Program-made: the position numbers and the translations under genes
Shown here: positions 9,518-9,769 of the stretch, in pieces
Numbering within the stretch: position 1 is the stretch's first letter
Layout of the letters: each line of letters opens with the position of its first letter
The notes under the pieces: model-generated
The model's database searches: none
Seen by the model: only the letters and a program-made list of their open reading frames with translations
What the model was told of the DNA's origin: nothing
NCBI GenBank assembly: GCA_044238845.1
Contig: JBIICN010000004.1
Location: 73,785-97,784 of the forward strand
From: Bacteroidia bacterium
Lineage (GTDB): Bacteria > Bacteroidota > Bacteroidia > B-17B0 > Aurantibacillaceae
Direction: 5' to 3'
Length of the DNA: 24,000 nucleotides

Positions 9518-9769
9518 TTTGGGCGTGTCCCTGCGGGTCGGGCTTTCGGCACTCGCTTTTTTATTTGTCCTGCGGGACAAATAAAAAGAGCTCAAACAAA
9601 GCCTCAATCCCTCACGCAGGTTTAATGCAAGTTTGAAATTAACGTTCCGAACAGGAAAATAAATCTGCGTGAGGGATGCGAGCGAAAATCCTTTTTGCCG
9701 CCTTTTTGCAAAAAGATTGTAGCGGGTCAGCCCGACGGCGCTGCATCTTTTGCGCCGGCACGCCCGAAA
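9518..9769. ncRNA. 252-nt GC-rich multi-helix structured element (unknown ncRNA or MITE-like insertion); strand unresolved, minus favoured by context
   Basis: Seven mutually compatible helices. P1 is 9518-9527/9759-9769, P2 is 9537-9543/9730-9736 and P3 is 9552-9556/9678-9682. P4 is the hairpin 9557-9570/9575-9588. P5 is 9607-9619/9665-9677, a perfect 13 bp. P6 is 9687-9698/9708-9718 and P7 is 9737-9741/9752-9756. It is visibly far more GC-rich than its flanks. Confidence 0.45.

Follow-up and report, generated by a model that had tools for sequence, protein, structure and literature searches.

A GC-rich segment in the Y-like RNA array of a Bacteroidota rsr-rtcB operon is very probably a dispersed repeat of the Flavo-1 family

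Introduction

The subject of this work is a GC-rich segment (positions 9518-9769) in a 24,000-nucleotide (nt) stretch of DNA from a Bacteroidia bacterium (GenBank assembly GCA_044238845.1, contig JBIICN010000004.1, positions 73,785 to 97,784 of the forward strand); the whole stretch is referred to as the window. The segment is embedded in an operon with a TROVE/Ro60 gene (rsr, 10316-11833), an RtcB gene (6447-7874), two RlaP genes and an S24-like gene, all on the minus strand; a gene for a WYL regulator stands divergent from rsr. About five tRNA-like/YrlA-like modules (9060-10300, minus strand), in which a T-arm-like motif (GGTTCGAATCC) recurs, are arrayed between rsr and a tRNA-Lys gene (8979-9052, minus strand). 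The best YrlA matches among these modules reach 29 bits (9072-9189) and 21.9 bits (9372-9466), the gathering score being 69; judged by their sequence, the modules appear to be divergent Y-like RNAs that are scarcely recognised by the Rfam model. An independent Logan assembly (L001) is identical to the window across the array.

In an earlier note on this DNA the locus had been taken for an RNA-repair operon with an array of non-coding RNAs (ncRNAs), which was confirmed by the occurrence of rsr, the tRNA-like/YrlA-like modules, rtcB and the RlaP genes on the minus strand. For the segment itself, a structured ncRNA partner of the operon had been proposed and, as an alternative, an insertion resembling a miniature inverted-repeat transposable element (MITE) or a repetitive extragenic palindrome (REP).

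Results

Composition, folding and anatomy of the segment

The G+C content of 9518-9769 is 50.0%, compared with 36.4% and 35.6% in the 250-nt flanks and 33.8% in the whole window. The longest open reading frame (ORF) in the segment has at most 44 codons for amino acids, so that it was classed as non-coding. The plus strand of 9518-9769 folds with a minimum free energy of -115.4 kcal/mol (z -7.5; dinucleotide shuffles, -76.5 +/- 5.2) and the minus strand with -103.8 kcal/mol (z -6.5); none of the 200 shuffles that formed the null folded as well on either strand. The ends pair with each other (TTTGGGCGTG, 9518-9527, with CACGCCCGAA, 9759-9768) and a second closing helix is formed by GTCGGGCT (9537-9544) and AGCCCGAC (9729-9736). 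These enclose two perfect 13-bp stems, one belonging to a hairpin (9558-9570 with 9575-9587) and one, ATCCCTCACGCAG (9607-9619) with CTGCGTGAGGGAT (9665-9677), closing a loop of 45 nt. The contrast in base composition and the closed multi-helix fold reported in the earlier note were thereby recovered, with the named helices at the coordinates given there, and its end points agree to within 1-2 bases with the positions at which 25 independent copies elsewhere cease to align. The long-range "closing" helices arise because two homologous units stand in inverted orientation and lend no independent support to an RNA fold.

A profile derived from the two halves of each of the 25 copies has exactly two matches in the window, each of them full length and scoring 73-74 bits; the left unit was found by the nhmmer unit model on the minus strand (9617-9518, full length) with 74.4 bits and E 3.7e-21. 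Each unit, about 100 nt long, consists of GCGTGAGGGAT, a variable hairpin, AGCCCGAC, a small variable hairpin and CACGCCC(AAA). The segment is thus composed of two homologous units of ~100 nt in inverted orientation, an A/T-rich spacer of ~50 nt and terminal inverted repeats of 10 bp (Table 1). The interior of the loop (9620-9664) has a G+C content of 28.9%, and the spacer sequence is weakly conserved in the copies. No covariation signal is obtained from the head-to-head helix because its first 11 pairs hardly vary. In the small terminal hairpin 96.5% of the cells are paired, and compensatory changes were found in four of the five pairs (for example, GGCGC/GCGCC to CCCGC/GCGGG); longer variants of this hairpin occur in other copies.

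Table 1. Features of the repeat and of its insertion site, in window coordinates
Feature	Position	Strand	Description
Apparent target-site duplication, left copy	9482-9488		ATTTTTA; read from sequence
Left outer arm	9489-9517		29 nt, A/T-rich (17% G+C); absent from empty alleles; opens with outer inverted repeat GAGTATTATTAAAATG (9489-9504)
Core repeat	9518-9769		two Flavo-1-type units head-to-head, closed by terminal inverted repeats; the part that copies in other genomes have in common with the window
Left terminal inverted repeat	9518-9527		TTTGGGCGTG; pairs with 9759-9768; GGGCGTG kept in nearly all full-length copies
Left unit	9518-9617	-	GCGTGAGGGAT, hairpin, AGCCCGAC, short hairpin, CACGCCCAAA; divergent Flavo-1 subtype
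Left-unit perfect 13-bp hairpin	9558-9587		90% of cells paired over 25 copies; three pairs with two-sided changes
Head-to-head helix around spacer	9607-9677		ATCCCTCACGCAG / CTGCGTGAGGGAT; first 11 pairs almost invariant in the family
Central spacer	9618-9666		A/T-rich, 49 nt, between the unit heads; sequence variable among copies, length conserved
Right unit	9667-9768	+	canonical Flavo-1 type; nhmmer 72.9 bits, E 1.1e-20
Small terminal hairpin	9736-9757		CGGCGC...GCGCCG, between AGCCCGAC and the right terminal repeat; length and sequence vary among copies
Right terminal inverted repeat	9759-9768		CACGCCCGAA, 10 bp; conserved across copies
Right outer arm	9770-9811		42 nt, A/T-rich (~23% G+C); closes with outer inverted repeat CATTTTTTTAATAC(ATTTC) at 9793-9811
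Apparent target-site duplication, right copy	9812-9819		ATTTTTTA; read from sequence

Family membership

The earlier note had not matched the segment to RNase P, tmRNA, 6S or SRP RNA; in a permissive Rfam scan both halves of the segment were matched by the Flavo-1 motif (RF01705). The right unit scored 39.4 bits (E 1.9e-6; 9659-9741, plus strand) and the left unit 22.5 bits (9532-9626, minus strand), both below the Flavo-1 gathering score of 42 bits. The right-hand units of the sister copies L078, L036, L063 and L099 scored above it (43.2-51.8 bits). Both window units carry the Flavo-1 hallmarks GCGTGAGGGAT ... AGCCCGAC (GGGAU head, AGCCCGA tail and variable hairpin between them), as do the Flavo-1 seed sequences of Weinberg et al. 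2010 (PMC2864571), by whom the motif was graded as likely RNA with covariation. On the basis of these scores and hallmarks, the window copy is best described as a borderline member of the homologous Flavo-1 family. YrlA or Y RNA identity of the element was rejected: no YrlA (RF02553) match was obtained inside 9518-9769 even at E <= 10, and YrlA matches were confined to the neighbouring modules.

The element shares with Rfam Flavo-1 the hallmarks GCGUGAGGGAU and AGCCCGAC on either side of a hairpin of variable length, the phylum and the multi-copy occurrence. It differs in that Flavo-1 is described in Rfam as a single unit of 76 positions and as a small RNA (sRNA) gene, whereas here two units form a fixed head-to-head doublet, to which the small hairpin and the 10-bp terminal inverted repeats are added; relative to the Rfam model the left unit (22.5 bits) is a divergent subtype. 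Unlike an sRNA gene, the element acts as inserted DNA, with presence/absence polymorphism, either orientation and no strand bias.

Copies in other genomes

A 21-mer from the left unit (CGGGCTTTCGGCACTCGCTTT, starting at 9539) was used to scan GTDB species-representative genomes and had exact matches at 117 or more loci, several per genome, with at least 7-8 loci coming from each of three single metagenome-assembled genomes (MAGs). Among the matches listed, the hosts are Bacteroidota (Flavobacterium, Aequorivita, Mesonia, Wenyingzhuangia and many MAGs), bar one MAG label: contigs named "MAG: Bifidobacterium breve HRS-ES12-bin-165" (CALPQG02...; L031, L054 and L085) carry the repeat and were probably mis-binned. 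About 25 copies span the whole 252 nt at 70-87% identity to the window copy (BLAST and alignment). Their alignment opens at (T)TTGGGCGTG and closes at CACGCCC(A/T)AA, and the flanks are unrelated; nor do the copies within a single MAG (JAZKGE01) share flanks.

With the unit profile, 188 units were found in 873 kb of loci. Among adjacent pairs 50 of 51 are head-to-head, one is tail-to-tail and none is tandem; the spacers of the 50 head-to-head doublets mostly measure 45-55 nt, and a further 88 units are singlets. Long open frames make up 84% of the sequence but contain only 11 of the 188 units, so that the units are almost always intergenic. The family is multi-copy and intergenic across many Bacteroidota genomes, and most adjacent units form a defined doublet. 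Clustering of 876 ORFs and Pfam analysis gave fur, purA, a PurK/PurT-type ATP-grasp enzyme gene, folE, recQ and an ABC transporter gene as recurrent neighbours. Units stand 18-100 nt from orthologous fur, purA, purK/purT-like, aminotransferase and folE genes in 4-6 genomes (L126, L106, L131, L035 and related loci); these recurrent positions reflect either insertions retained at orthologous sites over a long time or hot spots of insertion. Relatives of Rsr, RtcB or RlaP were encoded at none of the other repeat loci (0 of 117 listed).

Among mobile elements, no blastn match to the 252-nt element was obtained in plasmid and phage collections; generic Flavo-1 units were found in 35 IMG/VR contigs. 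One IMG/VR contig (L161, 9169 nt) is a fragment of a Mu-like transposable phage, encoding an rve transposase, a MuB-like AAA protein, Gam and an S24 repressor, and has Flavo-1 units in inverted orientation near both of its ends (443-536 and ~9043-9138). On two IMG/VR contigs with 29% G+C (L010:5872-6080 and L015:4680-4890) a different GC-rich palindromic element of ~215 nt was noted, which has the same terminal 17-mer (GGGCGTGTCCCTGCGGG ... CACGCCC), an unrelated interior and no unit-profile match; it may have an end-recognising enzyme in common with the Flavo-1 doublet.

Insertion polymorphism at the locus

A contiguous empty site was found in the orthologous operons of L002-L004, L133 and L134 (Rsr 97-98% and flanking DNA 97-98.5% identical), in which ...TTTTATAAAAAA is joined directly to CAAACAGTGTCG.... 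The site is likewise empty in L007/L008 (Rsr 91%) and in L135/L140 (85%), and L002, L005 and L007 gave no unit-profile match. The sole other carrier among the orthologous operons is L006 (Rsr 92%), where a homologous core is inserted at the same junctions in the opposite orientation. Over 107 nt its left unit matches that of the window at 92.5% identity, whereas the spacer cannot be aligned and the right end is in decay; the inversion was read from the core, the arms being too A/T-rich and palindromic to be oriented. The locus is polymorphic for presence, absence and orientation of the element.

The two outer arms that accompany the core (Table 1) contain an outer inverted repeat of 14 nt (86%; GTATTATTAAAATG / CATTTTTTTAATAC). 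In the empty alleles (A/G)TTTTT(T)A occurs once, flanked by CACTGTTT(T/G) and TAAAAGAGC, and in L006 similar arm ends are found at the same junctions as in the window insert. Several explanations of these borders were tried and rejected. A longer family consensus that would include the arms was not borne out (chance-level matches only), a target-site duplication at the core ends is not a general feature of the family (not above the null), and insertion into pre-existing palindromes is not indicated by the duplex energies of the 60-nt flanks, which are not better than those of mismatched pairs (p 0.13). The insert could be explained in three ways: a longer, lineage-specific form of the element entered a preferred site on two occasions; the doublet was carried as a nested passenger by a small A/T-rich MITE; or one old insertion was followed by inversion and by repeated precise loss between direct repeats. 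The arms are too A/T-rich to discriminate between them.

Part of the spacer (9624-9634, AATGCAAGTTT) is perfectly complementary over 11 nt to 9786-9796 in the right arm, with weaker similarity further out, and the right arm could be the remnant of another copy's spacer. A guide-like role of the central loop was considered and rejected as chance: over 25 doublets the loop-flank matches are distributed just as in mismatched loop/flank pairs (at least 11 nt in 2 of 25 doublets, as against 2.5% of the controls).

Hairpin conservation and strand

Changes on both sides were found in 11 of 52 consensus pairs (RNAalifold). The terminal hairpin reads GGCGC/GCGCC in 14-15 copies and CCCGC/GCGGG in 7-8. 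For the fold of the window copy, 81.7% of the cells pair across the copies, compared with 38-48% when the partners were slid by 1-3 columns, and none of 500 shuffles reached the observed covariation score. This shows that hairpin formation matters; in which molecule is not told by compensatory changes.

Strand-specific folding, which would be a sign of RNA, was rejected, since none was seen across the copies: in no more than 11 of 37 doublets does the window-like strand fold more stably than its complement. Between co-directional genes 17 singlets are in sense and 30 in antisense orientation (p 0.08), and doublets are located between convergent genes in 17 cases and between divergent genes in 7. 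In the transcriptome of F. psychrophilum (PMC9723704), Flavo-1 matches were sense or antisense to transcripts alike, and many were untranscribed. On the operon strand, the element contains no convincing terminator or promoter and no terminator-like site.

Search for a mobilising enzyme

All loci (~1 Mb) were scanned with regular expressions for Y1/HUH transposase motifs, with no hit; a single-copy gene would seldom lie within 8 kb of a random copy. The recurrent neighbours in the ORF clustering described above were housekeeping genes only, and no transposase was among them. Solo terminal repeats outside the units proved to be only variants with longer terminal hairpins, none of which stands beside a transposase ORF.

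Other features of the window and of a related operon

Between the WYL regulator gene and a second repair-like module the window carries an array of nine tRNA genes (13104-14010, minus strand; Tyr, His, Pro, Arg, Phe, Pro, Ile-TAT, Leu and Gln), two of which are tRNA-Pro(TGG). The second module (14693-18796, minus strand) encodes an M41-peptidase/AAA protein (14693-16819), an RF-1-domain protein (16707-17348) and RtcB (17393-18796), so that there are two RtcB paralogues in the window. One related operon (L005:3187-3881; GCA_040384225.1, Rsr 96%) has a shorter array with one Y-like module fewer, and an RNase T gene follows the S24-like gene where rtcB would be; close relatives therefore differ in the number of modules and in the content of the operon.

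Discussion

The segment at 9518-9769 is very probably a dispersed Flavo-1 repeat, non-coding and non-autonomous, that was inserted into the A/T-rich spacer between two tRNA-like/YrlA-like modules of the rsr-...-rtcB operon. Its strict doublet geometry, its terminal repeats and the insertion polymorphism are features of a DNA element. The MITE- or REP-like alternative of the earlier note was supported by the dispersed intergenic copies with sharp common ends and unrelated flanks, and by the polymorphism at one and the same site. For a mobile repeat that note had expected many dispersed, near-identical copies with target-site duplications; the many dispersed copies were found, but they are not near-identical and target-site duplications are not general.

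Several observations weigh against reading the segment as an inserted repeat. The extra DNA relative to the empty alleles is 9489-9811, that is 323 nt and not 252, and the exact unit that moved here is ambiguous because the arms stand outside the family consensus; beside other copies the arms gave only chance-level matches. Direct repeats at the core ends of 27 other copies are no commoner than in mismatched controls, and neither a transposase nor a RAYT (REP-associated tyrosine transposase) gene was found in the ~1 Mb of loci. Identities of 70-87% between copies, some of them at orthologous positions in several genomes, indicate a high age for much of the family, and domestication of some copies is possible. 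Compensatory substitutions in the hairpins would also be expected of a functional RNA.

The first proposal of the earlier note was a structured ncRNA partner of the operon. In this reading the segment would encode an RNA dedicated to Rsr/RtcB RNA repair, a partner or substrate like the Y-like RNAs that is transcribed with the array, and both its position within the array between rsr and rtcB and its very stable fold would suit such a role. The proposal did not survive comparison with other genomes and is now highly improbable: the site is empty in the closest operon relatives (Rsr 97-98%) and in all more distant ones except L006, the inversion in L006 means that the operon transcript would hold opposite strands in the two carriers, and at the 117 listed loci the family is never found beside Rsr, RtcB or RlaP elsewhere. 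It was rejected because a dedicated RNA would be neither absent from the nearest relatives nor strand-swapped between carriers. A wider version, in which the Flavo-1 unit or doublet is a functional RNA (multi-copy trans-acting sRNAs, or cis elements such as stabilisers, terminators or processing signals) that was spread by duplication, is unlikely. It would account for the hairpins kept by compensatory changes, the rating of the motif as likely RNA with covariation (Weinberg et al. 2010), the excess of doublets between convergent (17) over divergent (7) genes, and the units at orthologous sites by fur, purA or folE in several genomes. It is opposed by the lack of a strand preference in folding or in orientation to neighbouring genes, by the indiscriminate sense and antisense matches in F. 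psychrophilum, many of them untranscribed (PMC9723704), by the lack of any terminator-like site in the element on the strand of the operon, and by the strict head-to-head doublet with terminal inverted repeats, which is the architecture of a DNA element.

Another reading concerns what was inserted: a MITE of 323 nt that ends in the A/T-rich arms (GAGTATTATTAAAATG / CATTTTTTTAATAC), makes a duplication of 7-8 bp and is moved by a DDE transposase, with the Flavo-1 doublet as a nested passenger. In its favour, both arms and core are missing from the empty alleles, a 14-nt inverted repeat (86%) is formed between the arms, ATTTTTA and ATTTTTTA bracket the 323-nt insert where the empty sites have the motif once, and the arm ends of L006, at identical junctions, resemble those of the window. 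The reading is nevertheless rather doubtful, as the arms accompany no other copy in the loci searched, where matches to them did not exceed chance, neither inverted repeats (p 0.13) nor duplications are in excess beside other doublets, and in low-complexity A/T-rich arms such repeats are weak evidence. There is a negligible prospect that a GC-rich palindrome arose here by chance or through an error of assembly: beyond the origin of the window in a metagenome assembly nothing favours this, and it is contradicted by the identical sequence in the independent Logan assembly, by the homologous family in many genomes and by the shuffles, none of which (0 of 200) folds as well.

For an inserted Flavo-1 repeat, the following course of events may be envisaged. 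A host-encoded enzyme acting in trans would copy or move the doublet as DNA. The conserved "feet" (GCGTG/CACGC, GGGAT and AGCCCGA) are candidate recognition sites for a protein, and the hairpins may have been retained for recognition of the substrate as a folded, probably single-stranded molecule. By analogy, the mechanism would resemble that of REPs and of REPINs (REP doublets forming hairpins) with a RAYT (TnpA_REP) transposase, or that of a MITE with a DDE transposase; the terminal inverted repeats and the apparent 7-8-bp duplication at this locus would fit the MITE-like model. The copy in the window, ~20 nt upstream of the next module and interrupting neither neighbour, is most likely a passenger that would be co-transcribed and then trimmed away.

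In comparison with REP/REPIN sequences (Bertels and Rainey 2011, PMC3116915; Quentin et al. 2018, PMC6006769), the element likewise consists of short palindromic intergenic units, many per genome, which mostly occur as inverted, spacer-separated doublets together with decayed singlets (here 50 head-to-head doublets and 88 singlets); in both, some copies persist at orthologous sites and the unit ends have no target-site duplication. The differences are that REPs measure 20-40 nt and the present units ~100 nt with several hairpins, that the GT[AG]G (or CGTC) foot is replaced by the conserved feet GCGTG/CACGC, that no RAYT gene lies near any copy in the loci scanned, and that the insert at this locus has an apparent duplication and extra arms. 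With bacterial MITEs (for example, the Correia elements of Neisseria; census, PMC11602168) the element has in common a size of 250-320 nt, the lack of coding capacity, terminal inverted repeats, multi-copy intergenic occurrence and insertions that are polymorphic among close strains; at this locus there is also an apparent A/T-rich duplication of 7-8 bp. It differs from them in that no parent insertion sequence with matching ends was identified in the loci searched, that no duplication was seen at the core ends of other copies, and that its interior is a doublet of an independently occurring unit and not a deleted transposon. The element is not a canonical REP and works most like a REPIN or a MITE.

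Tentatively, Flavo-1 could be the REP/REPIN equivalent of Flavobacteria and related Bacteroidota, with the doublet of ~250 nt as the replicating entity, recognised as a folded single strand and copied by the Bacteroidota-specific subclass 2.6 of TnpA_REP/RAYT proteins. If this were true, the "atypical secondary structures" reported around subclass 2.6 genes would be Flavo-1 units, and the insertions in opposite orientation at the same site of two Rsr operons would reflect a real target preference. The supplements of PMC6006769 hold no sequences for the "atypical" REPs of Bacteroidetes, and no statement that Flavo-1 is a REPIN-type DNA repeat was found in the papers examined that mention Flavo-1.

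For the window, the result removes a tempting candidate for a new structured RNA in an RNA-repair operon, and in annotations of the Y-like array the element should be treated as a passenger repeat. The element is an ordinary repeat and represents no new kind of biology; the resemblance of an abundant Rfam "sRNA" family to a REPIN-type DNA repeat might be of interest to specialists. More broadly, one of the most abundant "sRNA" families of Rfam behaves like mobile or repetitive DNA, as judged from its doublet architecture, terminal inverted repeats and insertion polymorphism, which bears on the annotation of Flavo-1 in Bacteroidota, on the use of such repeats as strain markers and on the substrates of RAYT-like transposases of the Bacteroidota.

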